Shown here in pieces: positions 3 to 13,154 of a stretch of 64,000 nucleotides of DNA (positions within the stretch are counted from its first letter, which is position 1; each line of letters opens with the position of its first letter). The notes under the pieces are model-generated. The model did not search any database, was not told the DNA's origin, and saw only the letters and a program-made list of their open reading frames with translations. Made by a program: the position numbers and the translations under genes. This DNA comes from a virus (taxonomy: Duplodnaviria > Heunggongvirae > Uroviricota > Caudoviricetes): IMG/VR virus record IMGVR_UViG_3300012016_000001, positions 1 to 64,000 of that record; one strand, 5' to 3'.

Positions 3-809
3 GATGTTAAAAGTTTGTATCCAAAAACTTATCAAAGAGAATTGGTTAATAAACAATTTAATCAACTCATTGATGTAGCTAAACAGGATATGAATCGTCA
101 AACTGGCTTTATAGTGGCTCTTGATGTTTCAGGGTCAATGACCTCTAAAGCTCCAGGTACAGGACGTTCTGCTTATTCTGTTGGGCGTGCTATGGCATTG
201 TACTTCTCTGAATTATTAAAAGGTAAGTTTGCACATACATTCTTAGCTTTTAGTAATACAGTTGTGATAGATAGATTTGAAGGTAAAACTCCTTTAGAGA
301 AATATTACAATGGATATAGAAAGTATGATGCTTGTAACACTAACTTCTTCCAGATTGCTCAGTTGTTTGTGCAACTAAAGAATAGAGGATACAAAGAAGA
401 AGATTTTCCAACAGGTATCGTATGTATATCTGATGGAGAATTTGATAGACCTGGAGGAGACTGGAATAGTACTGGTGATTCTGATTGGAGATATAGAGGA
501 AAAGAAACCAGAGAGACAGTCTTTGAATCTTTTAAGAATCATTTAAAGAAAAATGGCTTCTCCGAAGAGTATGTTGATAACTTAAAAATGGTTCTTTGGG
601 ATGTTCCAAGCTATTACTATAGTTCTAGTCCAGATGTAAAGTTTGAAGCTCTTGCAGACACTCCAAACATTTTCCACATGAGTGGATATGACCCTGCAGG
701 TATTGCTTTCTTAACAGGAACATCACAAGTACAAGTAATTCCAAAAACTCCAGAGGAGTTATTTGAGGCTGCTATGCAGCAAGAGTTAATCCAATTGCTA
801 AACATTTGA
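3..809 (+). CDS. von Willebrand factor A (vWA) domain protein, 5' end outside window
   Basis: Frame is open to the window edge. MIDAS-like motif VALDVSGSM and downstream ISDGE motif. Confidence 0.6.
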   Translation, partial: DVKSLYPKTYQRELVNKQFNQLIDVAKQDMNRQTGFIVALDVSGSMTSKAPGTGRSAYSVGRAMALYFSELLKGKFAHTFLAFSNTVVIDRFEGKTPLEKYYNGYRKYDACNTNFFQIAQLFVQLKNRGYKEEDFPTGIVCISDGEFDRPGGDWNSTGDSDWRYRGKETRETVFESFKNHLKKNGFSEEYVDNLKMVLWDVPSYYYSSSPDVKFEALADTPNIFHMSGYDPAGIAFLTGTSQVQVIPKTPEELFEAAMQQELIQLLNI

Positions 810-2638: not shown

Positions 2639-2710
2639 AGAGGTCTTACAGCAACTTGAAATCTAACTTATGCTTAATTTAGGAAGAAAGGAGTAGTTTT
2701 TCAGACCTCT
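2639..2710 (+). ncRNA. CAGCAA-box long-range-helix element, copy E1
   Basis: AGAGGTCT (2639-2646) pairs with AGACCTCT (2703-2710). CAGCAA lies at 2649-2654, 2 nt after the 5' arm. Confidence 0.5.
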
Positions 2711-2738
2711 GCTTAATTGAATCTAGCAATAGGTTCAT

Positions 2739-2813
2739 GGGTGGTTAGCTCAGCTGGCTGGTAGCAAATGACTGTTAATCATTAGGCCGTGGGTTCGAGT
2801 CCCACACCGCCCT
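2739..2813 (+). tRNA. tRNA-Asn(GTT)
   Basis: Hand-folded cloverleaf: acceptor GGGTGGT/ACCGCCC, anticodon loop CTGTTAA, T-arm GTGGG-TTCGAGT-CCCAC. Confidence 0.85.
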
Positions 2814-2818
2814 CTTAA

Positions 2819-2931
2819 AGGTGTGCTGCGTCCTTATGGACTACTCAGCAAATTTATTTCCTACGATCATAAATTTGTAAAATTAACACGAATGAAGGGT
2901 AAATGGATCAATCGAGGCAGGAGGCACACCT
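2819..2931 (+). ncRNA. CAGCAA-box long-range-helix element, copy E11 (variant with an extra inserted hairpin)
   Basis: AGGTGTGC (2819-2826) pairs with GCACACCT (2924-2931). CAGCAA at 2846-2851 follows a GTCC-ttat-GGAC hairpin. A second 10-bp helix, GAAGGGTAAA (2894-2903) with TTTACCCTTC (2963-2972), interleaves with it. Confidence 0.4.
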
Positions 2932-2976
2932 GTTAAATCAAAATCTGTATTAGAAAGTGAAGTTTACCCTTCTAAT

Positions 2977-3050
2977 GCTCCTTTAGCTCAGTTGGATAGA
3001 GCAATAGCCTTCTAAGCTATGGGTCGTTGGTTCGAATCCAACAGGGAGTA
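2977..3050 (+). tRNA. tRNA-Arg(TCT)
   Basis: Acceptor GCTCCTT/AGGGAGT, D-arm GCTC..GAGC, loop CTTCTAA, T-arm GTTGG-TTCGAAT-CCAAC. Confidence 0.85.
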
Positions 3051-3055
3051 CTAGT

Positions 3056-3178
3056 ATGAAAGAAAAATTAAGACAATGGTTCTATTCAATTAATGTCAAT
3101 AAGTATAGACATTATTTTGAGGAATGGTATTCCAATTTAACTCCTCAACAATTAAGATGGTATGAAAAAATATTCTAG
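3056..3178 (+). CDS. small hypothetical protein (40 aa) ending in TAG; would extend to 3208 if TAG is read through
   Basis: ATG at 3056, TAG at 3176-3178, next in-frame stop TGA at 3206-3208. Confidence 0.3.
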   Translation: MKEKLRQWFYSINVNKYRHYFEEWYSNLTPQQLRWYEKIF

Positions 3179-3210
3179 ATTAGACGAATTAAAGTAAAAA
3201 ATAAGTGAAA

Positions 3211-3834
3211 ATGAAGAAATTTTTAGTACTCATGTTTGCCTTACTAATGGCTATTAGTTTTTAGAGTTGCACCAACTGTAGTGGTAATCCCAGTCTAAAC
3301 AGTCCTGTTAAAACTGAACTTGTAGTGGATCAAGCTATTAGCTTAGATAACTAGTACATGTTCATGAATTATGGTGAGAACTATCGTTGGTTTGAAACTT
3401 GCGTTCTTATGGACGATTTCCTAGATGAGGAAACTGATGGAAGTGTTAATATGGTTGTTAATATCTATCAGGTTGCAAAAGGTGATGATAAATCTTTCGA
3501 TGTTAAAGTATTCAAGTTTCAACACTTAAAAGATGGAACTGTTTTGAAAGATTCTGTTGCTGGTTTTTGGATAGAAGATAATCCTTTGAATGATTCAACT
3601 ATAAAGATTGATTACAAGGAAGCCTTTAATCTTGTTCAAAAGGTAAATCTACCTAAACCACATACTAGAAATGCTATTCTAAGGAATCCTCTTGGTCCTC
3701 TAGACACTAATCCACAGTGGGTGTTCGGAAATATCCGTGAACAAATATGGGTGGATGCAACCACAGGAGAAATTAGAAAATCAAATCCAGCATTTCCTGA
3801 TGAATTAAAAATGCCTCTTGGTGAATGGCCCTGA
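3211..3834 (+). CDS. putative lipoprotein containing two in-frame TAG codons (3262-3264 and 3352-3354)
   Basis: ATG at 3211 encodes MKKFLVLMFALLMAISF-TAG-SC, a signal peptide plus Cys. It is in frame with track ORF 3358-3834, and the only interruptions are two TAGs. Confidence 0.55.
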
Positions 3835-3919
3835 TTTCACTCTTTGAGCTAGTTGGGAAACTAGCATGTAAAACCGATATTTTTCATAAATTATTAGGAG
3901 CTACGAGTTAGCTCCATTT

Positions 3920-3993
3920 GGGGGTAGTGGTGTAAATGGCTAACACATAATCCTTGCAAGATTAAATTTAGGGTTCGAGTCCCTCTACTTCCA
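3920..3993 (+). tRNA. tRNA-Ala(TGC)
   Basis: Acceptor GGGGGTA/TACTTCC with a G3:U70 wobble (Ala identity), loop CTTGCAA, T-loop TTCGAGT. Confidence 0.8.
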
Positions 3994-3997
3994 CATA

Positions 3998-4065
3998 CAG
4001 AAGACACACAGCAAGTGCTTTATAATAAAAAATTTTAGGGAAATTTAATAATTATAAGTCTTCTG
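3998..4065 (+). ncRNA. CAGCAA-box long-range-helix element, copy E2
   Basis: CAGAAGAC (3998-4005) pairs with GTCTTCTG (4058-4065). CAGCAA at 4009-4014. Confidence 0.5.
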
Positions 4066-4070
4066 ATTTT

Positions 4071-4146
4071 GGCTTGTTGAGCCCACTGGAGTGGGAACTT
4101 GACTGTCACTCAAGTAAAACAAAGGGATCGATACCCTTGCAGGCCG
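4071..4146 (+). tRNA. tRNA-Asp(GTC), atypical D-arm and T-loop
   Basis: Acceptor GGCTTGT/GCAGGCC, anticodon arm CTTGA-CTGTCAC-TCAAG, T-arm AAGGG-ATCGATA-CCCTT with A at position 54. Confidence 0.55.
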
Positions 4147-4203
4147 CTAAATCAAAACTAATGAGTCTCTAAAGTATTTTTAAACAATTAAAGTGTAACC
4201 TGT

Positions 4204-4461
4204 ATGATTAACTCGATTCCTATAATGGACCAGAAGATTATTGATAAGTATTTTCCTGGCCAAGCAGTCAAGTCAATCATGCGTACACCGTTAAAGTCTG
4301 TGAGAGGCTATTCACTTGAAGGAAACAAAGGATTGCTTATAAGCACTCCGAAACTTAAACACCTTCTTGCTCTTTATGCTTCTCAGATAGCGTTACAAAC
4401 AAAATGGAATACTTCCCTTAATAAGGAAGGAGACCATTTGATTTGTCTCTTGTACCCTTAA
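4204..4461 (+). CDS. hypothetical protein (85 aa) between tRNA genes
   Basis: Track ORF. It is preceded by the 15-mer AACAATTAAAGTGTA, which recurs at 8315. Coding status is uncertain. Confidence 0.3.
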   Translation: MINSIPIMDQKIIDKYFPGQAVKSIMRTPLKSVRGYSLEGNKGLLISTPKLKHLLALYASQIALQTKWNTSLNKEGDHLICLLYP

Positions 4462-4472
4462 ATGGGTAATAC

Positions 4473-4543
4473 TGGTCCTTAGTTTAGTGGTAAAACGATG
4501 GTCTCCAAAACCATTGTCATCTGTTCGATTCAGATAGGGCCTG
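4473..4543 (+). tRNA. tRNA-Trp(CCA)
   Basis: Anticodon arm ATGGT-CTCCAAA-ACCAT, T-arm ATCTG-TTCGATT-CAGAT. The acceptor has one mismatch in either register. Confidence 0.7.
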
Positions 4544-4576
4544 CAATCACTAAAGGGAAAAGAAACTGTAGTTTAT

Positions 4577-4647
4577 GGGCAATTGTCCGAGCGATTAGGT
4601 GGCGGACTGCAAATCCGTCTAGACAGGTTTGACTCCTGTATTGCCTT
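4577..4647 (+). tRNA. tRNA-Cys(GCA)
   Basis: Acceptor GGGCAAT/ATTGCCT, anticodon arm GCGGA-CTGCAAA-TCCGT, T-arm ACAGG-TTTGACT-CCTGT. Confidence 0.75.
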
Positions 4648-4685
4648 CATCAAATGATGTTGATTTTTTGCATATTAATGACTTT

Positions 4686-4713
4686 AGTGTCTGGTTCGTG
4701 AGAATAGGACACT
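4686..4713 (+). ncRNA. conserved-loop hairpin H1 (loop TGGTTCGTGAGAATAG), 9 nt upstream of a tRNA
   Basis: Stem AGTGTC/GACACT. The loop is shared with H2-H4 while the stems differ. Confidence 0.5.
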
Positions 4714-4721
4714 TTTTACAT

Positions 4722-4793
4722 CGCAGGGTAGAGCAGTGGTAGCTCGCAAGTTTCATAAGCTTGAAGTCGTTAGTTCGAATCTAACCCCTGCAA
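4722..4793 (+). tRNA. initiator-like tRNA-fMet(CAT)
   Basis: CGCAGGG..CCCTGCA gives a C1-A72 mismatch as in bacterial tRNA-fMet, and overall similarity to E. coli tRNA-fMet in the acceptor and D-arm. The anticodon stem CAAGT/GCTTG lacks the three G-C pairs. Confidence 0.75.
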
Positions 4794-4799
4794 CAAATT

Positions 4800-4883
4800 G
4801 GGAGTTTATTCCGTAAGTGGTAGCGGGGCTGACTGTAAATCAGCTTGCTTTTGCATCGGGGTGTTCGACTCACTCAGCTCCCA
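4800..4883 (+). tRNA. tRNA-Tyr(GTA), long variable arm
   Basis: Acceptor GGGAGTT/AGCTCCC, anticodon arm GCTGA-CTGTAAA-TCAGC, long variable arm, T-arm GGGTG-TTCGACT-CACTC. Confidence 0.8.
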
Positions 4884-4887
4884 CTTT

Positions 4888-4959
4888 GGCCTTATAGTTC
4901 TAATGGTAAAACACCGCACTTGTAATGCGGATTTCTCAGTTCGATTCTGGGTAGGGCCT
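4888..4959 (+). tRNA. tRNA-Thr(TGT)
   Basis: Acceptor GGCCTTA/TAGGGCC, anticodon arm CCGCA-CTTGTAA-TGCGG, T-arm CTCAG-TTCGATT-CTGGG. Confidence 0.8.
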
Positions 4960-5027
4960 CTATGCATCGGCTTAGGACTGTTGCGTTACGCTTCCTCATG
5001 GTGATACCTTTAAGGTAGAGGAAGAAA

Positions 5028-5086
5028 GGAGTACACACAGCAATGTTTTTATACAGTTATGATATTGCAGAGTTGTTTTGTACTCC
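5028..5086 (+). ncRNA. CAGCAA-box long-range-helix element, copy E3
   Basis: GGAGTACA (5028-5035) pairs with TGTACTCC (5079-5086). CAGCAA at 5038-5043. Confidence 0.5.
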
Positions 5087-5090
5087 GTAT

Positions 5091-5116
5091 GAGGTTGGCT
5101 TTGTCCAACCTCTTTT
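5091..5116 (+). terminator. terminator-like hairpin abutting the next tRNA
   Basis: GAGGTTGG (5091-5098) pairs with CCAACCTC (5105-5112), followed by TTTT. It could instead be a processing hairpin. Confidence 0.4.
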
Positions 5117-5205
5117 GCCCTCATCGTATATCGGTCAGTGCTGGAAACAGACGATTACCCCTGCCTTTTAAGCAGGTAAGCATGGTTCGACTCCATGTGG
5201 GGGCA
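5117..5205 (+). tRNA. tRNA-Lys(TTT) with about 17-nt expansion of the D-arm (89 nt)
   Basis: Acceptor GCCCTCA/TGGGGGC, anticodon arm CCTGC-CTTTTAA-GCAGG, T-arm CATGG-TTCGACT-CCATG. The D region is GTA-T-ATCG...CTG-GAAA-CAG...CGAT-TAC, an extended helix carrying a GAAA-capped hairpin. Confidence 0.6.
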
Positions 5206-5244
5206 CTATAAAAATCAAGACAATAAAAGTAGTTTTTAAGAAAT

Positions 5245-5376
5245 AAAGAAGTCTTACAGCAATAACAATTAATCTAAGTTTACCAAAAAGCGCTGAACTT
5301 GTAGTTCAATGGTAGAATACCTTTTTATTAAAAAGGAGATGACGGTTCGAATCCGTGTGGCAAAAAAGACTTCTTT
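5245..5376 (+). ncRNA. CAGCAA-box element, copy E4, enclosing a tRNA-like core without a conventional acceptor stem
   Basis: AAAGAAGTCTT (5245-5255) pairs with AAGACTTCTTT (5366-5376). CAGCAA at 5257-5262. Inside are a D-arm GTTC-AATGGTA-GAAT, the hairpin CCTTT-TTATTAA-AAAGG, and a T-arm ACGG-TTCGAAT-CCGT. Confidence 0.5.
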
Positions 5377-5379
5377 TAT

Positions 5380-5452
5380 AGAGCTATCCTCTAATAGGTT
5401 AGGAGACGTGACTGATAATCACGCAATCCCAGTTCAAGTCTGGGTAGCTCTA
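5380..5452 (+). tRNA. tRNA-Ile(GAT)
   Basis: Acceptor AGAGCTA/TAGCTCT, anticodon arm CGTGA-CTGATAA-TCACG, T-arm CCCAG-TTCAAGT-CTGGG. Confidence 0.85.
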
Positions 5453-5526
5453 CAATCGTCCAAACAAAAAGTAATACAAACAAACATTTATCAAACTAAA
5501 CATTCAGCAAAACACAATAAGAATAT

Positions 5527-5550
5527 TTCTGCTTAGGCAGAAGTGTTTTT
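5527..5550 (+). terminator. small rho-independent terminator-like hairpin
   Basis: TTCTGC-ttag-GCAGAA followed by GTGTTTTT. Confidence 0.45.
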
Positions 5551-5558
5551 AGTGTAAA

Positions 5559-5595
5559 CTCCTGGAGTACGTGTACTCTGGGAGGGTTTTGTTTT
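5559..5595 (+). terminator. rho-independent terminator
   Basis: 12-bp stem CTCCTGGAGTAC/GTACTCTGGGAG (with G-U pairs) followed by GGTTTTGTTTT. Confidence 0.65.
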
Positions 5596-5601
5596 GGACT
5601 C

Positions 5602-5631
5602 AGCCTCATCTAGTTGCAAATAGGTGAGGCT
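5602..5631 (+). ncRNA. conserved-loop hairpin H4 (loop TCTAGTTGCAAATAGG), 4 nt upstream of a tRNA
   Basis: Stem AGCCTCA/TGAGGCT. The loop is related to those of H1-H3. Confidence 0.4.
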
Positions 5632-5634
5632 TTA

Positions 5635-5709
5635 GGGGCAGTAGCGCAGGTGGTCAGTTCGCGCCAGTCTGAAAAACTGGAGATCGTGGTTCAACTCCAC
5701 GCTGCCCCA
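5635..5709 (+). tRNA. tRNA-Phe(GAA)
   Basis: Acceptor GGGGCAG/CTGCCCC, D-stem GCGC/GCGC, anticodon arm CCAGT-CTGAAAA-ACTGG, T-arm CGTGG-TTCAACT-CCACG. Confidence 0.85.
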
Positions 5710-5729
5710 CAGAATAGTATATTACTATA

Positions 5730-5798
5730 AAGAGGGCTCACAGCAAATTCATTCTAATTTTTTTCGCCATTATAAGTTTGATTAGCTAAAGCCCTCTT
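5730..5798 (+). ncRNA. CAGCAA-box long-range-helix element, copy E5
   Basis: AAGAGGGCT (5730-5738) pairs with AGCCCTCTT (5790-5798). CAGCAA at 5741-5746. Confidence 0.5.
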
Positions 5799-5805
5799 AA
5801 ATATA

Positions 5806-5869
5806 CAGGGTACAGACAGCAAACTTTATTTTAGGTTCGAACTTTTAACTCGATGTGTCTAGTACCCTG
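5806..5869 (+). ncRNA. CAGCAA-box long-range-helix element, copy E6
   Basis: CAGGGTAC (5806-5813) pairs with GTACCCTG (5862-5869), extended by AGAC/GTCT across a 1-nt bulge. CAGCAA at 5817-5822. Confidence 0.5.
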
Positions 5870-5874
5870 CCTAT

Positions 5875-5947
5875 AAAGGAGTCCTACAGCAAATTTGTCT
5901 TACATTCCGAATTGTCATTTCAGAAGAAAAAGAAAATGGACTCCTTT
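5875..5947 (+). ncRNA. CAGCAA-box long-range-helix element, copy E7
   Basis: AAAGGAGTCC (5875-5884) pairs with GGACTCCTTT (5938-5947). CAGCAA at 5887-5892. Confidence 0.55.
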
Positions 5948-5979
5948 TTAAATGAATAACCAATTATAAAATATATTAA

Positions 5980-6043
5980 GGAGGGCATGCAGCAAAAAGT
6001 TTGTAAATAGCGTGTCTGTGTAACATACTTAACAGTGCCCTCC
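5980..6043 (+). ncRNA. CAGCAA-box long-range-helix element, copy E8
   Basis: GGAGGGCA (5980-5987) pairs with TGCCCTCC (6036-6043). CAGCAA at 5990-5995. Confidence 0.5.
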
Positions 6044-6081
6044 GTTTTTATGAAAATGTTTTAACTATTTAAATAGTAACT

Positions 6082-6876
6082 ATGCAAAAATTAAATGTTT
6101 TATTAGCTCTTAGAGAGAAGTTAGCTAATCGTTATGCCCAAATGAACGGTGACTATACTTCATTCTTTAAGAACAAGCAAGGAGCGTTTCAAGGTACGCT
6201 CAAGACACACTCTCCTTTAGATGGGTATGCAGTAGATTCTACTAAAGTAGCTAATGTGAGAGTTATTACCACAGTCAATGAAAAAATGGATTGGTGGTTG
6301 AAAGAAGCTCTAGACTATTTTAACACAGCTTTGGCTATTGAAGCATCTAATGGGCAAGGTGCTCCTACAGTTGAACTAGAATTCGATGGAAGAACTTACG
6401 GTCCTTTCCCAGCTACTGTGTTATTAAGGCTTCGTGGCATTATAGAGAACGATAAGTTCGCTACAATGCTTGGTAATATTCCTGTTAGAGAGGAGACCAA
6501 AGTTTGGTTGCCTATTGATCAGGATGAAGATTACAAGAGAAGAGGTAATATCTTCCAAACAGAAAGACAAGAAGGTGAGACTCGTACTACAGAAACACAT
6601 GATGAAATCTTGAAAGATCCTAACTTAGATCCAGCTCATCTTCCTTCTAATTACCGTGCTCAAGTAACTCAAGTTAAGAGAACAGTTAAGACTGGAGATT
6701 ATACTACTCAGTCATTTACTGGTGAATGGACACATCAGCAACGTGCTAATCTTTTAAAAAGAAGAAGTGCATTGCTCGATGCTATCAATGTTGCCTTACA
6801 AAAAGTCAATGACCGTGAGGCAATTGAGTGTAAAGTAGATGATCTATTCAGACATCTCATTTATGGACAAAATTAA
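6082..6876 (+). CDS. hypothetical protein embedded in the tRNA array
   Basis: 264-aa ORF with no recognised motif. Confidence 0.55.
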   Translation: MQKLNVLLALREKLANRYAQMNGDYTSFFKNKQGAFQGTLKTHSPLDGYAVDSTKVANVRVITTVNEKMDWWLKEALDYFNTALAIEASNGQGAPTVELEFDGRTYGPFPATVLLRLRGIIENDKFATMLGNIPVREETKVWLPIDQDEDYKRRGNIFQTERQEGETRTTETHDEILKDPNLDPAHLPSNYRAQVTQVKRTVKTGDYTTQSFTGEWTHQQRANLLKRRSALLDAINVALQKVNDREAIECKVDDLFRHLIYGQN

Positions 6877-7010
6877 ACTTTAAATATTGACCCTAGCTTT
6901 AGCTTCACACTTTAGCTTTACAGAATCCTAGATAGTAAGCATCAATGTTGTGGTCAAAAGCTTTAGCGAAGTTGATTACAGTGTATTACTTACCTTGACG
7001 ACTATTATCG

Positions 7011-7154
7011 CTCGGTAATCGCGGGTTCAAATCCCGTCCCGCCCTCAAACAGAGTTCTTCTGAACTCTGCCCTTTCATGTTACTTTAGTCATTGCTTGTG
7101 AAAGTAGTGACTATATGGGCGGGTCGTCTAGTGGTTAAGACTCCGGGTTTTTAA
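7011..7154 (+). tRNA. circularly permuted tRNA-Lys(UUU)-like gene: 3' half (7011-7045) lies upstream of the 5' half (7117-7154)
   Basis: The 3' half is CTCGG-TAATC-GCGGG-TTCAAAT-CCCGT-CCCGCCC-T. The 5' half is GGGCGGG-TC-GTCT-AGTGGTTA-AGAC-T-CCGGG-TTTTTAA. Acceptor and anticodon stems are complementary only between the two halves. Neither half has a partner in the normal gene order. Confidence 0.55.
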
Positions 7155-7228
7155 GCATCAGCATTATAGGGTAAAATGTAATACGCAAAAGTTCATGGAT
7201 TAGTAAGACGGATTTGTCGCTAATCCTA

Positions 7229-7301
7229 GGGAGAGTAGCTCAGTGGTTAAAGCAATAGTCGCTAAAACTATCGATCGAGGGTTCGAATCCCTCCTCTCCT
7301 G
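7229..7301 (+). tRNA. amber-suppressor tRNA, anticodon CTA (reads UAG), with G at position 33
   Basis: A 73-nt canonical cloverleaf: acceptor GGGAGAG/CTCTCCT, anticodon arm ATAGT-CGCTAAA-ACTAT, T-arm GAGGG-TTCGAAT-CCCTC. Confidence 0.75.
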
Positions 7302-7364
7302 CTTATGTTACCATATTATATTATTTTTTCGTTAGTATCTGTCTGTGAAGATCGATACTAAGTC

Positions 7365-7459
7365 AGCGGGTTATGCAAATGGTAAAGCAGTAGTTTATCT
7401 ATGTGAGTACGTATAGTTCTAGGCCAGTACTCTTGGGAGTTCGAGTCTCTCACCCGCTA
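7365..7459 (+). tRNA. 95-nt tRNA-like gene, anticodon undetermined
   Basis: Perfect acceptor AGCGGGT/ACCCGCT, D-arm TGC-AAATGGTAAA-GCA, T-arm GGGAG-TTCGAGT-CTCTC. The 44-nt central region has no canonical 5-7-5 anticodon arm. Its best helices are GAGTAC/GTACTC and CTATG-(8 nt)-TATAG. Confidence 0.4.
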
Positions 7460-7498
7460 CAAATTAATTTAAAACAAATTGGGTAAAAAATAACCTAT

Positions 7499-7646
7499 AA
7501 AGGAGACGAACAGCAATTTCAACGTTTTGCATTTTGGTTGCCGAAGTTAGGGTTCGAATCCCTAGTCCTCCCTAATGGGAGGATTAGTGTAACTGGTAAG
7601 TGTGAAGTTAAGCACACGATAGCACGCGTTTTTGTTGGTCTCCTTT
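7499..7646 (+). ncRNA. CAGCAA-box element, copy E9, enclosing tRNA-Ser-like pieces in permuted order
   Basis: AAAGGAGAC (7499-7507) pairs with GTCTCCTTT (7638-7646). CAGCAA at 7511-7516. Inside, the T-arm TAGGG-TTCGAAT-CCCTA and GTCCTCC are followed after 6 nt by GGAGGAT, the same acceptor as the tRNA-Ser at 7851. Confidence 0.45.
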
Positions 7647-7850
7647 TAAAATATTTTCCCTCTTAAAGGTTTTGCTAGGAATCTAGCTTATCAGGGTATG
7701 CTCTAAGCTCTTAGTTACGGTGCACACGTTCTGAGTTTGAGTAGTGTATTATAAGTTCACCCATAACTGCAGATAAAAGTGAATGAAATTTACACGTCCT
7801 TAGGATTACTAAGAGGGATAAGGGAGAGATTTATTAATCTCTCCCCGAAT

Positions 7851-7940
7851 GGAGGATTAAGCCTAATTGCTAAGGCAGCGGTCTTGAAAACCGCCAGTAG
7901 TCGGTAAAACGACGTGTGGGTTGGAGTCCCACATCCTCCT
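7851..7940 (+). tRNA. tRNA-Ser(TGA), long variable arm
   Basis: Acceptor GGAGGAT/ATCCTCC, anticodon arm GCGGT-CTTGAAA-ACCGC, long variable arm, T-arm GTGGG-TTGGAGT-CCCAC. Confidence 0.85.
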
Positions 7941-7942
7941 CT

Positions 7943-8233
7943 ATGAGTAAATGTAAGACAAGTAAATGTAATGCAGCATGTTGTTACAACATCTGCTTTA
8001 AAGAGAATGAGCTTGAACGATTTTCTGTACGTATTGTAAATCCTGTTATAGATACTATTCCACTTCCTTGGGGAACTATGGCTAAAACTAATGAGAATAT
8101 GGATTTAAATAAATGTCCATTTCTTAGAAAGGATTTAAAGTGCAATATATACGAAAATCGTCCAGAGGTGTGTAGGTTGATGGGAGTTATTCCTAAGATG
8201 CCATGTAAGTATTTAAAGGAGAGTAAACCTTGA
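7943..8233 (+). CDS. YkgJ-like CxxCxxCC zinc/iron-chelating domain protein
   Basis: Motifs KCNAACCY and CPFL..KCNIYENRPEVCR. ATG at 7943; the track ORF N-terminus (7916) overlaps the tRNA-Ser. Confidence 0.6.
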   Translation: MSKCKTSKCNAACCYNICFKENELERFSVRIVNPVIDTIPLPWGTMAKTNENMDLNKCPFLRKDLKCNIYENRPEVCRLMGVIPKMPCKYLKESKP

Positions 8234-8303
8234 GGGTGATAGGGGCTGTTTGCTAAACAGTACGCTCGCTTCGGCGGGTGCGGATCGAGACCGCTGCTCT
8301 CCT
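8218..8303 (+). tRNA. tRNA-Ser(GCT), long variable arm; overlaps the last 16 nt of the upstream CDS
   Basis: Acceptor GGAGAGT/GCTCTCC, anticodon arm GCTGT-TTGCTAA-ACAGT, variable arm containing CGC-TTCG-GCG, T-arm TGCGG-ATCGAGA-CCGCT (49-65 mismatch). Confidence 0.65.
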
Positions 8304-8328
8304 CGCTAACTTTTAACAATTAAAGTGT

Positions 8329-8445
8329 ATGGAAGATTTAAATTACAAGTATGAAAAACCTGATAAACCAATTCAGGTTAATGTTCCAAGTAAACCACGA
8401 TTTAAAGTCAACCAAGAAGGTGGCGACACGCGTTGGTATACATGA
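8329..8445 (+). CDS. possible 38-aa ORF (coding status doubtful)
   Basis: ATG directly after the repeated 15-mer AACAATTAAAGTGTA. The region downstream looks structured rather than coding. Confidence 0.2.
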   Translation: MEDLNYKYEKPDKPIQVNVPSKPRFKVNQEGGDTRWYT

Positions 8446-8669
8446 ACTCCGACCATCCACAATGTCGTAAACTTAGGTGGCGTAGGAAAAGAAACTACTT
8501 TCCTGTTAGGTACGAGAACCTAATTTAGCTTTGTCAGTTTCGCTGAGGAAGAAACGACTATGTGACCTAGTCAGAAAATTAGGCAGAACTGTGGACGCAC
8601 AGCGAATAGAAGGTGGGTAAGATTGCGACTTGAGAACTCTATATGTCTTATAAACCTGCCTTCTCTTTA

Positions 8670-8743
8670 GGGCCTCTAGCACAATAGGTTAGTGCAACAG
8701 ACTCATAATCTGTAGGTTCCGAGTTCAAGCCTCGGGGGGCCCA
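8670..8743 (+). tRNA. tRNA-Met(CAT), either elongator or tRNA-Ile2 type
   Basis: Acceptor GGGCCTC/GGGGCCC, D-stem GCAC/GTGC, anticodon arm ACAGA-CTCATAA-TCTGT, T-arm CCGAG-TTCAAGC-CTCGG. Confidence 0.85.
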
Positions 8744-8759
8744 CTAAACACCTTTAAAT

Positions 8760-9554
8760 ATGAAATTAATAAGTAAAGAACGGACTGGCGGAAATCCAGC
8801 TATTGAAATTGAAATGGACAAGGTGGATAACCTAAGAGTTTTAGATATTATCCATTCTTTGGTTGATGCTCAAGGTAGAATCTATCCAATACCATTCTCC
8901 TTTATAAAGAATGATAATGAGGATACCTTGAACGTGGTAATGCAAGTGTTAGGTTTGTATACCTTTCCAACTCTTGAACTAACTGAATGGTTAGAAGAAC
9001 AAATAGATGAATACACTGAAGGTTACGAGCCTGCTATAGAAATATGTGCAGGAAGTGGATGGATAGGTAGACAACTTCAAATACCTACTACTGATGCCAA
9101 AATCCAAGAAGATCCTAAAGTGCGGAATCTATATTTAATGAGTAGTCAAATTCCTATGATATATCAGGATGATGTTGAAAAGATAGAAGCTCTTGAGGCA
9201 GTTAAAAAGTATAATCCTGAATATGTAATAGGTAGCTACGTTACTTCTACTGAAAGAATTAAGAAAAATAATAAAAGAAAGACTATCTATTTAAATATAC
9301 CTTTACCAAGCGGAGGATTTATAAAACAAAATATGATGGAGCTTGCAGAAAAGGAGATTCCGTTTTTTGGAGTTAATGTTCAAGCTATAATAAGGAGAGT
9401 GCATAAGACTTTCTTAGTTATAAATGAAAGAACCCATTATAACGAATCTTACTTGAGTATGCCACATAAGTCATATAAGTTTCCTTGGCTTGTAACTAGA
9501 GGTGATATTAAAAAAGGTCGTGTTTTAATATATGAGAACAAAGGATGGACTTGA
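8760..9554 (+). CDS. hypothetical protein, possible SAM-dependent methyltransferase fold
   Basis: AIEICAGSGWIG resembles methyltransferase motif I (weak). Confidence 0.45.
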   Translation: MKLISKERTGGNPAIEIEMDKVDNLRVLDIIHSLVDAQGRIYPIPFSFIKNDNEDTLNVVMQVLGLYTFPTLELTEWLEEQIDEYTEGYEPAIEICAGSGWIGRQLQIPTTDAKIQEDPKVRNLYLMSSQIPMIYQDDVEKIEALEAVKKYNPEYVIGSYVTSTERIKKNNKRKTIYLNIPLPSGGFIKQNMMELAEKEIPFFGVNVQAIIRRVHKTFLVINERTHYNESYLSMPHKSYKFPWLVTRGDIKKGRVLIYENKGWT

Positions 9555-9775
9555 AGTTTAGACGTTGCAAATGTTCACTTTCTCCAAAGGATATGGTTTT
9601 TACTTTTAAAACTCCAGTTAAACTCTGCGAGTATGAAGGTAAACAGTATATCATTATGGGGAGATTGAAAGAAACAAATAGAGAAAGTAAGAAATTATTA
9701 GAATTTCTATTTGGAGACGAAATTGTGTATACAAAACAATTAATATTAGTTCCAAGAGATTTCTTTTTCATCTAA
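9545..9775 (+). CDS. hypothetical protein
   Basis: 76-aa ORF overlapping the upstream stop by 10 nt. Confidence 0.4.
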   Translation: MDLKFRRCKCSLSPKDMVFTFKTPVKLCEYEGKQYIIMGRLKETNRESKKLLEFLFGDEIVYTKQLILVPRDFFFI

Positions 9776-9834
9776 GGGAGATGTGTCAGCAATTATTAAC
9801 TTTCTTATTGGTTTTAGTTTTTGGTTAGTCTCCC
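9776..9834 (+). ncRNA. CAGCAA-box long-range-helix element, copy E10
   Basis: GGGAGA (9776-9781) pairs with TCTCCC (9829-9834). CAGCAA at 9787-9792. Confidence 0.4.
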
Positions 9835-9841
9835 GTAACCT

Positions 9842-9879
9842 GGGGATAGGGTAAATGTTTACCCTTCCCCTATAATTTT
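9842..9879 (+). terminator. terminator-like hairpin
   Basis: GGGGATAGGGTAA pairs with TTACCCTTCCCC (one bulge), followed by tataatttt. Confidence 0.45.
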
Positions 9880-9886
9880 CTTAATA

Positions 9887-10696
9887 ATGTTAAATTTTGG
9901 TTTAAAACATTGTCATTCTTCTAATTGGCACAAGAAGTTTCCAAGAAAGAAGATTGAACATGAGGACCCAAAGCATCTAGGGATGCATCAACACCTTAGA
10001 CTACGTAATGAGTGGTTTGAGGGAAGACAAGGTTTTCTTTCCATTAAAGAGATTCGTAAGTTCTTGGAAGCAAATCTTGGTAAGAATGTAGATGAAGTAT
10101 TCTCTGAATTTGTTAAACGTGCTAAAAGATATAAGCATGATGTTAGTCTTAGAGAAAGATTCTTTGCACAGTTAGACCCAGACACTAGGTATGGTTCTGG
10201 TTATACTTTAGATATACAAAACAAAATAGTAAAGGTTAAAGAAATTAAAGTTCACAGGATACGTGACAACGAAGCTCGTGTATTTAATGAAGTAGCTTAT
10301 CCTTATAATATTAATCAGTATTTAAGAGAAACGGAACTTACTTATATAGGAGATTTTTATCTAAGAACTAGACATTGGAATTGGGTAAAAGCACCTGTGT
10401 ATGTATGTAGTAAGGAATGGTATAACTTAGTACTGACATATGGAGTAGGCAAGAAATATACTAAAATGAATGAAATGCAAAGGATACATATATTCTTTAA
10501 TAAGTATATTGCTGTAGGAGTTCCAAAGAAAGGATATGCTACTCGTGCTGAACCTACTGGTAATACTATATGTATCTGTAATCACGAAATGCGAGAGTAT
10601 AAACACGTTAAGTATCCATATACAACAATGGATTGCGAGTCTGATTATATCTTCCTTACTAAGGGAGGAGAAGATACTAATTGGTACGTATATTAA
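9887..10696 (+). CDS. hypothetical protein
   Basis: 269-aa ORF. Confidence 0.55.
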   Translation: MLNFGLKHCHSSNWHKKFPRKKIEHEDPKHLGMHQHLRLRNEWFEGRQGFLSIKEIRKFLEANLGKNVDEVFSEFVKRAKRYKHDVSLRERFFAQLDPDTRYGSGYTLDIQNKIVKVKEIKVHRIRDNEARVFNEVAYPYNINQYLRETELTYIGDFYLRTRHWNWVKAPVYVCSKEWYNLVLTYGVGKKYTKMNEMQRIHIFFNKYIAVGVPKKGYATRAEPTGNTICICNHEMREYKHVKYPYTTMDCESDYIFLTKGGEDTNWYVY

Positions 10697-10704
10697 ATAG
10701 ATTA

Positions 10705-11063
10705 GGGCCTGACCGGATTTGACGGCTTCTGAAGGTAAATCACTCACTCATGACTGATGGAAAGACATCAAAAAAATTAAACGGAGAAAATAACACAACT
10801 CCCCGCGCTAAAGTTGTTAGCATCGTTTATAGAGCTGCAGCTTGATCGACGCCTGGTAAAAGGGTAACCAAGGAACATAATACCCTTAATTTCTTTATTT
10901 TTAGCCAATAATATTCTGCGCCTATCGGAGATATAACTAAATAGGCTGGTGGAAAGTCAGACAACAGTCTGCCCCAGAGAAGGAAACTCTTATAAAACCT
11001 ATGAGTGTAAGAATGTGATGAGAATAGGATTCGCGGACGAGGGTTCGACTCCCTCCAGGTCCA
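10705..11063 (+). ncRNA. ssrA: tmRNA (SsrA), one-piece
   Basis: The 5' end GGGCCTGACCGGATTTGACGG and the 3' end GGACGAGGGTTCGACTCCCTCCAGGTCCA closely resemble bacterial tmRNA termini. Acceptor GGGCCTG/CAGGTCC has a G3:U70 pair. Internal tag ORF at 10783-10845. Confidence 0.88.
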
Positions 11064-11317
11064 CTTGTTAAATAATGTTAAATTTATTGTGGATTTATAT
11101 TGTTATTTATATATTTAATCCTGTAAAAACGTTCATTATAGTAAAGATAAAATGTTCCAGCACTCACGGCTACAAACTGAGTGACTAGTGTTCAACAAGA
11201 GCGCAGTATTACTATCACAGCTGAACTATAGAGGCAGTGAAGACTTTATGGTCGAACTGAGGGCAGTTTAGTCTGGAACAATCTAAGCTGTTCTCTTTAC
11301 TTGTGAAATTCATAAAT

Positions 11318-11345
11318 ACCTTTCGGTTCGTGAGAATAGAAAGGT
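11318..11345 (+). ncRNA. conserved-loop hairpin H2 (loop GGTTCGTGAGAATA), 4 nt upstream of a tRNA
   Basis: Stem ACCTTTC/GAAAGGT. The loop core is identical to H1. Confidence 0.5.
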
Positions 11346-11348
11346 TAT

Positions 11349-11421
11349 GGCGGAATGATGTTTAATGGTAGCATGCTACTTTTGGGAAGTAGTCGAGTCG
11401 GTTCGAGTCCGGTTTCTGCCA
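11349..11421 (+). tRNA. tRNA-Pro(TGG)
   Basis: Acceptor GGCGGAA/TTCTGCC, anticodon arm CTACT-TTTGGGA-AGTAG, T-loop TTCGAGT. Confidence 0.8.
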
Positions 11422-11429
11422 CTATTGTT

Positions 11430-11502
11430 GCAACGTTAGTGTTAATGGTTAGCAAGAGGCCTTGCCAAGGCTTAAGAGTGAGTTCGAATCTCATACGCTG
11501 CT
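11430..11502 (+). tRNA. tRNA-Gly(GCC)
   Basis: Acceptor GCAACGT/ACGCTGC (one A-C mismatch), anticodon arm AGGCC-TTGCCAA-GGCTT, T-arm GTGAG-TTCGAAT-CTCAT. Confidence 0.75.
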
Positions 11503-11646
11503 CTCCACCGTCGAAATGGCTGAGACGTTAAGTAATTGCCAGACAGATACCCTTACTAAAGCAACAAGGGCGTGAATTATAGGTAACCAACGAGAAGAGA
11601 ACCTTTTGAAAGAGCCCCAACCCTAAGTGGAACTGGGTGGGGACCT

Positions 11647-11717
11647 GCGGGATTCGTTCAATGGTAGGACACTAGCCTTCCAAGCCTGTGATGTCGGTTC
11701 GATTCCGGTATCCCGCA
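11647..11717 (+). tRNA. tRNA-Gly(TCC) with a weak anticodon stem
   Basis: Acceptor GCGGGAT/ATCCCGC, loop CTTCCAA. The stem CTAGC/GCCTG has two central mismatches. Confidence 0.6.
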
Positions 11718-11887
11718 CCTACAGACTATTATTGCTGCAGAAGTAATAGTATCGAAGCAGCCCATACCCTCCGTCCGGCTGGGAGAAATCGTTCGTTCCG
11801 TACCTGAGCACCGAGGTATCTGTAGAAGCGTTAGTTAGAGTTACCTATGAGGGACGAGATGCCCTGTTGAAACTCGAAGGTGTACAT

Positions 11888-11961
11888 GGTGTAGATGGCC
11901 GAGTGGTTTAGGCGCAAGTTTGTGGCACTTGTTTACGCAGGTTCGAATCCTGTTCTACACC
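11888..11961 (+). tRNA. tRNA-His(GTG) with a G-1:C73 pair
   Basis: G-1 plus acceptor GTGTAGA/TCTACAC plus C73. Anticodon arm CAAGT-TTGTGGC-ACTTG, T-arm GCAGG-TTCGAAT-CCTGT. Confidence 0.85.
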
Positions 11962-11979
11962 CAATTAAATATTTTAATT

Positions 11980-12183
11980 ATGAAAGAAAGAATAAGAAAG
12001 ATTATTGAAAGAATTACTGAACGTAAAATTACAAATGATGATGAGCCTATAGAGATGGATAGTATAGACACTATGGAAGTTATAGTAAGTCTAGAGTATG
12101 AATATGACATCCATATAGATACTATTATAAAGGAGGATTTATCATTAAATGATTACGTTGAGTTAGTTAGGAGCATGGTGTAA
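11980..12183 (+). CDS. acyl carrier protein-like small protein
   Basis: 67 aa with EMDSIDTMEVIVSLEYEY, which matches the ACP DSLD phosphopantetheine-site helix. The track ORF N-terminus overlaps tRNA-His. Confidence 0.55.
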   Translation: MKERIRKIIERITERKITNDDEPIEMDSIDTMEVIVSLEYEYDIHIDTIIKEDLSLNDYVELVRSMV

Positions 12184-12252
12184 TGGTAGCACATCTGACT
12201 TTGACTCAGAAGGGAGCGTGAGCCACTGCAGGTTCGAGTCCTGCTGCTCCTA
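12169..12252 (+). tRNA. tRNA-Gln(TTG) with a 17-nt variable region; overlaps the last 15 nt of the ACP-like CDS
   Basis: Acceptor AGGAGCA/TGCTCCT, anticodon arm TCTGA-CTTTGAC-TCAGA, variable region AGGGAGCGTGAGCCACT (GC-GTGA-GC mini-hairpin), T-arm GCAGG-TTCGAGT-CCTGC. Confidence 0.7.
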
Positions 12253-12290
12253 CTTGTCTCCATTAAGGAGAATTTTAAAGGTGTTTGTTC

Positions 12291-12320
12291 AACTCACTGG
12301 TTTGCGAAAATAGGTGAGTT
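12291..12320 (+). ncRNA. conserved-loop hairpin H3 (loop TGGTTTGCGAAAATAG), 6 nt upstream of a tRNA
   Basis: Stem AACTCAC/GTGAGTT. Confidence 0.5.
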
Positions 12321-12325
12321 TAAAT

Positions 12326-12410
12326 GCTGCGTTCGACTAGTGGCTTAGGTCACAAGACTTTCAATCTTGTAGGATGAAAATCCTCAGGGGTTCGAATCCC
12401 CTACGCAGTA
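12326..12410 (+). tRNA. tRNA-Glu(TTC) with a 16-nt variable arm
   Basis: Acceptor GCTGCGT/ACGCAGT, anticodon arm CAAGA-CTTTCAA-TCTTG, variable arm T-AGGAT-GAAA-ATCCT-C, T-arm AGGGG-TTCGAAT-CCCCT. Confidence 0.75.
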
Positions 12411-12414
12411 CTAA

Positions 12415-12488
12415 GGGAGCTTAGTTCAGTGGTTTAGAACACTGCCCCTACAAGGCAGGAGTCGATAGTTCGAATCTATCAGTTCCCA
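12415..12488 (+). tRNA. tRNA-Val(TAC) with C at position 33
   Basis: Acceptor GGGAGCT/AGTTCCC, anticodon arm CTGCC-CCTACAA-GGCAG, T-arm GATAG-TTCGAAT-CTATC. Confidence 0.8.
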
Positions 12489-12515
12489 CGACAACTTTGT
12501 AAATCAACTGGGAAA

Positions 12516-12556
12516 AGCCTGGACAGTGCGAAATATCATTGTCTAGGCTTTTATTG
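12516..12556 (+). terminator. rho-independent terminator closing the tRNA array
   Basis: AGCCTGGAC (12516-12524) pairs with GTCTAGGCT (12541-12549), followed by TTTTATT. Confidence 0.65.
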
Positions 12557-12591
12557 TGTTATGTTTATCTTAATATTAGTACTTTGCCTTG

Positions 12592-12627
12592 TTTGGTTTA
12601 TTTACCAATTATTAGAGATTAGATTTG
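12592..12627 (+). promoter_or_regulatory. possible Bacteroidota-type promoter (-33 TTTG, -7 TAGATTTG)
   Basis: TAGATTTG at 12620-12627 matches TAnnTTTG. An upstream TTTG lies at 12592-12595, a spacing somewhat longer than the consensus. Confidence 0.25.
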
Positions 12628-12688
12628 ATATGCCTTTTATATGGTTTACATGGAAAGGTAATAGAAATTATATTAGATTATTTTAACT

Positions 12689-13108
12689 ATGTTAGATTAT
12701 GAGATTTACACTGATGGTGCTTATAGCAACACCAGAAATCAAGGCGGAATTGGAATTGTAATAATTAAAGATGGAGAATACGTATATAAGTATTCTAAAG
12801 GCTTTGAGAATACAACCAATAATCGAATGGAAATGATGGCAGTAATGGCAGCATTAAATGCTATTAAAAATCCAATCAATTCTTTAGTTATCTATACAGA
12901 TAGTCAGTATGTTATAGGATGTGCTACTCTTGGATGGAAACGTAAAAAGAATGTAGAATTGTGGATGAAGTTCGATAAGGTATTTGAGCAGGCTACGAAG
13001 CTTGTCAAAACTCCAATTCGTTTTGAGCATGTAAAAGGTCATGCTGATAACGTTTATAATAATCTTTGTGACGAGATAGCAGTAAATGCTTCTCACGAGG
13101 TATTATAA
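12689..13108 (+). CDS. rnhA: ribonuclease HI
   Basis: YTDGA...MEMMAVMAAL...IYTDSQYV...VKGHADNVYN, the RNase H DEDD-type motif order. Confidence 0.85.
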   Translation: MLDYEIYTDGAYSNTRNQGGIGIVIIKDGEYVYKYSKGFENTTNNRMEMMAVMAALNAIKNPINSLVIYTDSQYVIGCATLGWKRKKNVELWMKFDKVFEQATKLVKTPIRFEHVKGHADNVYNNLCDEIAVNASHEVL

Positions 13109-13150
13109 ACGGGGGTGCCAGGAAAATCCTGGTGCCCCCGTCAACTTTTG
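13109..13150 (+). terminator. rho-independent terminator-like hairpin
   Basis: 15-bp stem ACGGGGGTGCCAGGA/TCCTGGTGCCCCCGT followed by a weak T-run. Confidence 0.55.
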
Positions 13151-13154
13151 TTAA

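Follow-up and report, generated by a model that had tools for sequence, protein, structure and literature searches.

Stem-CAGCAA elements in the tRNA array

The stretch analysed here, a 64,000-nt window of a Caudoviricetes genome (IMG/VR record IMGVR_UViG_3300012016_000001; hereafter the window), opens with the 3′ part of a gene predicted to encode a Ro60-like protein (3..809, + strand) and carries an array of 22 tRNA genes and one transfer-messenger RNA (tmRNA) gene at positions 2739-12489, also on the + strand. Scattered within this region are the elements that concern us, in which two complementary arms close a long-range helix and the 5′ arm is followed at short distance by the hexamer CAGCAA. 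An initial annotation of the window had described a family of 11 such elements (E1-E11), whose coordinates and arm sequences were reproduced when recomputed with independent scripts. Nine of them (E1-E9) have a perfect helix of 8-11 bp, a 5′ arm ending 1-3 nt from CAGCAA and an interior of 35-121 nt, and all are on the + strand. Unless an Rfam family is named, the bit scores below refer to a covariance model (CM R1) built from 44 short copies, seven from the window and the rest from other phages, which scores E1-E8 at 31-46 bits.

Most copies are short. E1 (2639-2710) has an 8-bp helix with the layout AGAGGTCT ta CAGCAA ... AGACCTCT, then G (41.9 bits), and further short copies with 8-bp helices lie at 3998-4065 (E2, 43.6 bits) and 5028-5086 (E3, 39.8 bits). 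Four short copies stand in tandem at 5730-6043, namely E5 (5730-5798; 9-bp helix; 44.1 bits), E6 (5806-5869; 8 bp; 37.8 bits), which encloses a hairpin like an anticodon stem-loop, E7 (5875-5947; 10 bp; 45.8 bits) and E8 (5980-6043; 8-9 bp; 34.3 bits), where G rather than A precedes the box. Of the two long copies, E4 (5245-5376; 11-bp helix) is outside the training set and is recovered at 31 bits (E = 6e-5), while E9 (7499-7646; 9-bp helix; minimum free energy fold of -56.3 kcal/mol) has its score lowered to 15 bits by a long insert. Runs of T follow several of the 3′ arms. The two other members of the proposed family, also on the + strand, fared differently: E11 (2819-2931; 8-bp helix; AGGTGTGC ... 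CAGCAA ... GCACACCT; local box match of 12.6 bits, E 2.4) is a variant, kept in a related phage, in which a 19-nt hairpin separates the arm from the box, whereas E10 (9776-9834; helix of 6-7 bp; 11-nt spacing; 16 bits, E 0.34) is a weak or divergent candidate.

The association of box and helix exceeds what chance provides. When a perfect helix of 8 bp or more was sought beside each box (gap up to 5 nt, interior 25-170 nt), it was found at 11 of the 34 CAGCAA boxes on the + strand versus none of the 19 on the - strand, the background rate being 2.8% of positions, and CAGCAA ranked first among all 4096 hexamers. These 11 boxes are E1-E9 and two in coding sequence (13542 and 23939), which are both rejected by the covariance model and were taken as chance occurrences, as about one is expected. 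The pattern might have been equally frequent in shuffled or coding sequence, as the initial annotation had considered, but in 200 simulated windows of matched composition the boxes that passed averaged 0.41 per window and never exceeded 3, and the two coding-sequence boxes are at chance level. The arm-to-box gap, first given as 1-5 nt, can also be stated more strictly: for E1-E9, and for 291 of the 361 unique relatives from other viral loci (see below), the distance from the start of the stem to the box is exactly 10 nt.

Other identities for the elements were considered. Small open reading frames (ORFs) using the 5′ arm as a Shine-Dalgarno-like sequence were rejected, as an ATG stands beside the box in E8 and E10 only and no consistent frame exists; a promoter reading of the box as a TACAAT-like -10 element was rejected as well, since the presence of a complementary 3′ arm is inconsistent with it and the sequence CAGCAA does not suit it. 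Beyond tRNA, tmRNA and sub-threshold matches to RF01414 and RF02553, no known self-cleaving ribozyme or other Rfam family was found in the window and its relatives at gathering or permissive E-values. A megablast search against 50,697 GenBank phage records matched one tRNA only and returned no near-identical phage genome.

Aligned relatives define a common handle, 5′-A-A-G-R-N-N-N-C-N-N-A-CAGCAA-(A-U-U)...G-N-N-N-Y-C-U-G-3′. The 5′ and 3′ ends form a stem of ~7 bp that varies in sequence, conserved being only the A-U, G-C and R-Y pairs on the outside and a C-G pair on the inside; it is followed by a fixed 3-nt spacer ending in A and then by the single-stranded CAGCAA, and a G stands after the 3′ arm. 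Note that CAGCAA itself was the search anchor and is therefore present by construction in the 361 unique elements. In the alignment of these handles (A2), 97.7% of cells are paired, double changes occur in 6 of the 7 pairs (91 double-change cells versus 27.8 in shuffles), G-U pairs are tolerated and slid controls pair at 37-46%, statistics that are descriptive because the helix served as the selection criterion for the alignment. Since A2 was selected on pairing, the independent evidence for the helix comes from compensatory changes between orthologs in the related contigs L122 and L123. As an example, the arms of E1 (AGAGGTCT/AGACCTCT) correspond to AGAAGTCT/AGACTTCT in its orthologs, a compensatory G-C to A-U change. 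E6 and its L123 ortholog differ by two compensatory arm changes (AGGGTAC versus AGAGTGC), with an interior similarity of 45%, E4 and its L123 ortholog differ by a compensatory GTCTT to GTCGT, and the E3 ortholog at L122 16780-16833 carries a compensatory change too. In E11, two compensatory arm changes separate the window copy (AGGTGTGC/GCACACCT) from its L122 ortholog at ~14050-14170 (AGAAGTGC/GCACTTCT), and the hairpin insert is kept.

What the handle encloses is variable and, in the long copies, tRNA-like. The interior of E4 matches the Rfam tRNA model at positions 8-63 (35.8 bits) and runs from a leader (...TAAGTTT-ACCA) through the 5′ acceptor strand, D arm and anticodon arm (loop TTATTAA) to the T arm; it is circularly permuted, because the 3′ acceptor strand and ACCA sit in the leader. 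E9 presents a T arm (TAGGG-TTCGAAT-CCCTA), an acceptor stem closed by a 6-nt loop (GTCCTCC-CTAATG-GGAGGAT) and a D-arm region. When each long cassette was rotated and all excisions were scored with ARAGORN, E4 gave 117.9 and E9 115.8 (Gln UUG-like), and most long interiors of the window and its relatives reassembled to tRNAs scoring 106-124, with junctions at 27-31, 44-48 and 61-64. The short copies hold an AU-rich loop of 30-50 nt, and the seven short copies of the window have no tRNA-like domain. Among 199 unique short interiors, 73 contain a hairpin like an anticodon stem-loop versus 10.4 in shuffles, the commonest loops being CTTTTAA (Lys UUU, 25 cases), CTTGTAA (Thr UGU) and CTCTTAA. The tRNA-Lys(UUU) is a classic target of anticodon nucleases. 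E6 is the sole window copy with such a hairpin, TCGA-ACTTTTAAC-TCGA, and its L123 ortholog has CGAA-CTTGTAA-TTCG.

Another permuted tRNA, without CAGCAA, lies downstream of the DUF7873 gene in a region of ~350 nt (6877-7228) that is conserved in three phages (L001 10900-11250 and L002 10820-11183). Its 3′ half (~7005-7046) and 5′ half (7118-7157; anticodon loop TTTTTAA) are joined by a linker of ~70 nt with two hairpins, leader and trailer pair with each other, and L002 has a matching 2-nt insertion on both sides. One may think of a permuted intron-exon arrangement for this region, or of a further Y-like RNA.

The Ro60-like gene and its linkage to the elements

The gene cut by the window start retains 268 codons and a stop, and encodes a vWA domain with the MIDAS motif DVSGSM. 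Its product matches Pfam DUF7788 (E 5e-10) and, just under the cutoff, vWA_Ro60 (E 1e-5). A full-length homolog with 78% identity (P0007), which adds DUF2828, is encoded in contig L122, where it lies immediately upstream of a tRNA array that is syntenic and contains orthologs of the CAGCAA elements. A first structural model, of P0007 from a 13-sequence alignment, reached a predicted template-modelling score (pTM) of 0.48 and a marginal Ro60 match. The AlphaFold2 model of another full-length homolog (P0043, 58-sequence alignment) has a predicted local distance difference test score of 88.9 and a pTM of 0.88, and its 13 best PDB matches, from Thermus phage, Xenopus, human and Deinococcus, are all Ro60/TROVE structures, with E-values between 1.6e-7 and 5e-4, probabilities of 0.99 or more and alignments spanning ~520-600 columns; next in rank are vWA domains on their own. 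Sequence identity to the solved Ro60 structures is 10-14%. Given that all 13 best matches are of this kind, the product of the window-start gene is, as judged from the predicted structure, a divergent Ro60-like ring protein with a vWA domain. A profile search retrieved about 1,300 protein clusters, the matches listed being all metagenomic. In contig L122 (10001-13011), the closest relative, the Ro60-like gene is split after residue 468 by a LAGLIDADG-type ORF (11649-12557).

Our results demonstrate on a larger scale that the gene and the elements are tightly linked. In 80 IMG/VR loci (1.4 Mb) picked by the protein alone (37-81% identity), scripts that use the helix as selection criterion counted 432 CAGCAA-plus-helix elements on the strand of the gene versus 24 on the opposite strand; 361 of the 432 are unique, and many of the loci, being from a single metagenome, do not count as independent. 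Elements occur in 77 of the 80 loci, including many with 0-3 tRNA genes, and their density peaks 0-1 kb downstream of the Ro60-like gene. Tandem neighbours are spaced by exactly 4 nt, GATA, in 51 of 89 cases. The covariance model gave 227 hits at E <= 1e-3 in these loci, every one on the strand of the gene, versus three hits of identical score in 926 kb of control DNA, taken from unrelated viral loci chosen for a look-alike 5′ pattern. In addition, a scan of one genome per prokaryotic species yielded 46 further loci, in which all 37 hits of the model are on the strand of the gene. As an example, an 8-Mb Saprospiraceae chromosome (~30% protein identity) carries AAGATTTC-tt-CAGCAA...GAAATCT-G within ~10 nt of the stop codon and then three more copies, and in a metagenome-assembled genome of Deltaproteobacteria (~30% identity) a stem-box RNA with the box CAGCAC likewise starts within ~10 nt of the stop codon. 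Adjacency and shared strand are thus kept from 81% down to about 28-30% protein identity, and this persistence over a wide divergence argues for a direct functional tie.

The initial annotation saw in the elements a selected RNA structure with a covarying helix and a constant single-stranded box rather than a transposon inverted repeat. This view is borne out by the strand specificity, by the compensatory changes that orthologs show and by the hundreds of relatives retrieved with the covariance model, and the covariance-model search that it had proposed separates related from control DNA. The tRNA array, in which it placed all copies, is in contrast not what defines their setting: the elements follow the Ro60-like gene and are present in tRNA-free loci too. 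No description of this widespread family was found in Rfam 15 or in the searchable literature.

Relatives were also sought through the neighbouring gene DUF7873, and this route was abandoned: the three loci obtained (L001-L003) are without CAGCAA elements but hold a sister family with the box TTACAA(T/A) versus TTACAGCAA and the less variable arms ARGWYACT. Its copies lie at L001 11411-14662 and at L002 9852-9961, 15840-16127, 17290-17360 and 20599-20664, where they frame permuted tRNAs, whole tRNAs that include an encoded CCA, or short interiors rich in A and T. At L001 12014-12133, a non-permuted Gln UUG-like tRNA has the module AGTATCA-TA-TGATACT plus TACAAT inserted at 29/30 of the anticodon stem, in the manner of an intron.

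Likeness to Y RNAs, permuted tRNA genes and Class I RNAs

Y RNAs adjoin Ro60 genes in more than 250 bacteria and phages, and YrlA mimics a tRNA with its T arm, closed acceptor stem and D arm and is not spliced (PMC4201824). The Ro60 of a Thermus phage binds two adjacent Y-like RNAs and assembles with the host PNPase (PMC12135203). With YrlA (RF02553) and with Yrl1/Yrl2 of Thermus phage phiLo (partner Ro60/Rsr), the stem-CAGCAA elements have in common that small RNAs are encoded beside a Ro60-fold ring protein with a vWA domain. They share with these Y RNAs a terminal stem of the 5′ and 3′ ends with a short conserved motif, the presence of several copies per locus and the occurrence in phages. 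A variable module like that of YrlA, running through T arm, closed acceptor stem and D arm, would be a further likeness, to judge from inspection of E9 and from the ARAGORN reassembly of the long copies. The long copies of three relatives match the tRNA-like part of RF02553 (positions 23-88) at 40.1, 34.8 and 24 bits, under the gathering score of 69. The differences are as follows: the protein family is DUF2828/DUF7788 versus Pfam TROVE in known Ro60; the handle is a stem plus NNA-CAGCAA versus GNCGAA(N)G or CGAA in Y RNAs; the copy number, up to ~12 per locus and often in tandem with the 4-nt GATA linker, is far above that of Y RNAs; and most copies, unlike YrlA, are ~60 nt long, without a tRNA-like domain or with an anticodon-stem-loop mimic only. 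The different protein family, motif and multi-copy tandem layout would therefore make this system a variant, and not a member, of the Ro60/Y-RNA kind.

Permuted tRNA genes of Cyanidioschyzon merolae, other algae and Thermofilum offer a further comparison. As in these genes, the interiors of E4, E9 and many relatives place the 3′ half of a tRNA ahead of its 5′ half, with a short linker between the two and a complementary leader and trailer around them. Unlike in these genes, the same handle is also found on RNAs without tRNA content, and the loops closing the acceptor are as small as 2-4 nt.

The closest sequence likeness is to the Class I RNAs of dictyostelid social amoebae (RF01414; Aspegren 2004, Avesson 2011, Kjellin 2021). 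E1 matches this family at 22.8 bits, the sole non-tRNA Rfam hit of the window apart from the tmRNA, while E5-E8 give none. Among the relatives, RF01414 hits over 62 kb were confined to 14 short copies, with scores of 26-30.5 bits, and a copy of the Saprospiraceae chromosome scores 30.4 bits, all these scores being under the gathering score of 41.5. Note that Kjellin et al. accepted candidates with a score of at least 25 on their own covariance model plus a stem, and that the relatives here exceed 25 on the Rfam model. The initial annotation could assign the elements to no RNA family known to it, and this has to be qualified by the sub-threshold matches to RF01414 (22.8-30.5 bits) and, in long relatives, to RF02553 (24-40 bits).

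The two handles are nearly identical, 5′-GUUGAC-CUUA-CAGCAA-AUCU...GUCAAC-UG-3′ in Dictyostelium and (A)GRNNNC-NNA-CAGCAA-AUU...GNNNYC-UG in the phages, the RF01414 consensus being GaUcuC-CUUACAGCAAU...GagAuC-UG. In 34 distinct curated D. discoideum sequences, CAGCAA stands exactly 10 nt from the 5′ end in 31 and the end is CTG in 32, and a position matrix of the phage copies gives a median of 20 bits on the D. discoideum RNAs versus 17.7 on the phage copies themselves. Both groups have an AU-rich variable interior, a length of ~45-70 nt, many paralogs with covarying stems, and a conserved 5′ G paired with the C of the 3′ CUG. In the relatives, G is found at -9 in 74% and the 3′ C-U-G in 74%, 84% and 80%; in the window, E1, E2 and E6 end in CUG and E3 and E8 in CCG. 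The conserved 11-nt motif of Class I RNAs, CCUUACAGCAA, lies immediately 3′ of the 5′ stem strand; ACAGCAA is present in 297 of the 361 phage elements, and CUUACAGCAA in 61 of the 361 and in E1 and E4. As differences, the phage spacer is 1 nt shorter than that of Class I RNAs, and Class I genes have a eukaryotic DUSE promoter ~60 nt upstream, which the phage copies were judged to be without from their prokaryotic and phage setting (tmRNA, tRNA array, sigma-70-type factor), DUSE not having been scanned for. Class I RNAs, which are abundant and regulated during development, are reported to be unique to Dictyostelia and to have no known function even after 20 years; their expression in Dictyostelium was demonstrated by northern blot and RNA-seq, and the sole protein shown to bind them directly is the RNA-recognition motif (RRM) protein Rnp1A (PMC7919456). 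No link of Class I RNAs to phages, to a Ro60-like protein or to tRNA mimicry was found in the searchable literature; nothing relevant on DUF2828, or on Ro60 in Dictyostelium, turned up there, and the Kjellin supplements contain no matching protein text.

Interpretation and rival explanations

Taken together, these observations lead us to favour, with moderate confidence, the explanation that the elements are small non-coding RNA genes whose products act as Y-RNA-like partners of the divergent Ro60-like protein. The copies would be transcribed on the + strand together with the tRNA genes and then cut to units, and the Ro60-like protein would bind the stem-plus-box handle. The tRNA and anticodon-loop mimics could attract enzymes that act on tRNA; they would serve as decoys where these are host anticodon nucleases, or as tethers where they are exonucleases or repair enzymes, and the tRNA pool would thereby be protected or remodelled during infection. 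Such a tRNA-directed role is in keeping with the neighbourhood, where the tRNA array, the suppressor tRNA, the tmRNA and ligase genes are found. Among the roles that the initial annotation had listed, "stable small RNAs" and "protein-binding" come closest to the genomic context, whereas guides for processing or ligation of the array transcript would be unable to explain the tRNA-free loci, and no support was obtained for cleavage at CAGCAA.

We infer the expression, processing, protein binding and biological role of these RNAs, and the putative ribonucleoprotein (RNP) of Ro60-like protein and stem-box RNAs is drawn from gene neighbourhood and from analogy with known Ro60/Y RNA pairs, relative to which it is non-canonical; several observations weigh against it. 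The canonical Ro60-binding motif GNCGAA/CGAA is not conserved in the handle, and the protein leaves Pfam TROVE itself unmatched, its matches being to vWA_Ro60, DUF2828 and DUF7788 only. In the window, there is no RF02553 match, E9 included, and no copy reaches any Rfam gathering score; moreover, a 333-amino-acid ORF (1564-2565) and 1.8 kb separate the Ro60-like gene from E1, and the copies are scattered over 7 kb among tRNAs, a looser arrangement than in most relatives. The loci L001-L003, which are close by another marker, carry the TTACAA family and have no Ro60-like gene within the 20 kb examined. To these points are added the descriptive nature of the covariation statistics and the shared origin of many IMG/VR loci, both mentioned above.

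Three other explanations have to be weighed against the Y-RNA-like one. The elements may be processing or splicing signals of the tRNA array, in which helix and box are read by an endonuclease, with or without a ligase, that excises the cassettes; permuted halves would be joined as a circular intermediate, as in Cyanidioschyzon, and opened by RNase P and RNase Z into working tRNAs, short copies being empty. We regard this as unlikely, even though it would accommodate the fixed 4-nt GATA linker between tandem copies, the ligase-family proteins of the window (47500-48708 and 49159-50553), the perfect, covarying anticodon stem that is restored when Thr(UGU)-type halves are joined, and the sister module (TTACAA) of L001 and L002, which flanks complete tRNAs with encoded CCA as well as permuted tRNAs and can form an intron-like insert with a 2-nt closing loop at tRNA position 29/30. 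The model is weakened because the excision search gave no fixed junction rule: the junctions vary (27-31, 44-48, 61-64) without a fixed distance to helix or box, and no bulge-helix-bulge (3-4-3) was seen in the cassettes. Hundreds of copies lie in tRNA-free loci without any tRNA-like payload, no homolog of the splicing endonuclease (tRNA_int_endo) was detected among the 40 window ORFs scanned, and closed-acceptor mimics are known from YrlA, which stays unspliced (PMC4201824).

The RNAs could also be independent of the Ro60-like protein, serving as sponges for another RNA-binding protein (an RRM protein like Rnp1A) or as base-pairing regulators acting through CAGCAA, so that the linkage would reflect co-regulation only. 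An invariant single-stranded box would indeed suit a sequence-specific single-strand binder, Rnp1A is the sole direct binder shown for the look-alike Class I RNAs (PMC7919456), and the sister family of L001-L003 lives without a Ro60-like gene in the 20 kb examined. Adjacent encoding is nevertheless an established hallmark of Ro60/Y RNA pairs, and here adjacency and strand are kept from 81% to ~28% identity in phages and cellular chromosomes, which makes this explanation improbable in our view. We give far less credit to DNA-level elements, such as cassette boundaries, recombination sites like integron attC, or promoter/terminator pairs. Variable inverted repeats around a constant core and variable payloads do look cassette-like, T-runs stand behind several 3′ arms and the phage encodes a sigma factor; but no sequence near the 3′ arm complements the box, in contrast to the R''/R' of attC, loops of 35-120 nt make poor intrinsic terminators, and the co-orientation with gene and tRNAs is strict (432 versus 24 elements; 227 versus 0 hits). 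G-U pairs are tolerated, interiors are tRNA-like, and the closest match in sequence and structure is to RNAs that are expressed in Dictyostelium (PMC7919456).

A broader and more tentative proposal, which we consider possible though short of probable, is that the stem-CAGCAA RNAs and the Class I RNAs form one family whose handle binds a Ro60 paralog of the DUF2828/DUF7788 type. Class I RNAs would then be the Y RNAs of a second Ro60-like lineage, by ancient descent or by horizontal transfer among phages, Bacteroidota, Myxococcota and amoebae, and the phage RNP would carry tRNA and anticodon-loop mimics that are directed most likely against tRNA-targeting host defences. If the Y-RNA-like explanation is true, a widespread RNP of the Ro60/Y-RNA type would exist with a protein family of "unknown function" (DUF2828/DUF7788), another handle and a multi-copy tandem layout. 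It would extend tRNA mimicry of the Y-RNA type to isolated anticodon stem-loops, mainly of tRNA-Lys(UUU), and make a decoy or repair role between phage and host testable, and the near-identical handle would give a concrete hypothesis for the orphan Class I RNAs. In addition, the permuted tRNA-like interiors show that a whole layer of tRNA-derived genes in phage arrays escapes standard tRNA finders.

Several further features of the window may form an RNA-repair and transcription context for the array: genes for a Band-7/SPFH protein (18272-19057), a metallophosphoesterase (41638-42375), an ATP-dependent DNA/RNA-ligase-family protein (47500-48708) and a sigma-70-family factor (50550-51395), and a weak RNA-ligase-like ORF (49159-50553). 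Within the array, a tRNA with a CUA anticodon (7229-7302; an amber suppressor, 'Pyl' for ARAGORN) and in-frame TAGs nearby, e.g., at ~3250-3360, suggest TAG recoding in this phage. Two other tRNAs are unusual: one of 90 nt with a 23-nt D-loop (5117-5206) is called Val(GAC) by ARAGORN and reads by eye as CCTGC-CTTTTAA-GCAGG (UUU, Lys-like), and one with an internal insertion (7365-7459) was found by Rfam only, at 33 bits. In L001, two tRNA genes (12590-13225 and 13700-14330) have inserts of ~570 nt that share blocks (ATAAGGCACGAAAGTCCTTGTGAGAATCT...) and are, by eye, probably group I introns. In the related phage contig L065, a match to the type-P1 twister ribozyme falls short of the gathering score (51.6 bits versus 67.2; E 1e-8); it lies beside a tRNA-Arg at 13062-13126 on the - strand. 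Finally, the window holds a LAGLIDADG-like ORF (26374-27429) and, at 37774-40978, an anaerobic ribonucleotide reductase gene (NrdD) that is interrupted by the ORF of an HNH endonuclease at 39736-40497, most likely an intron or intein.

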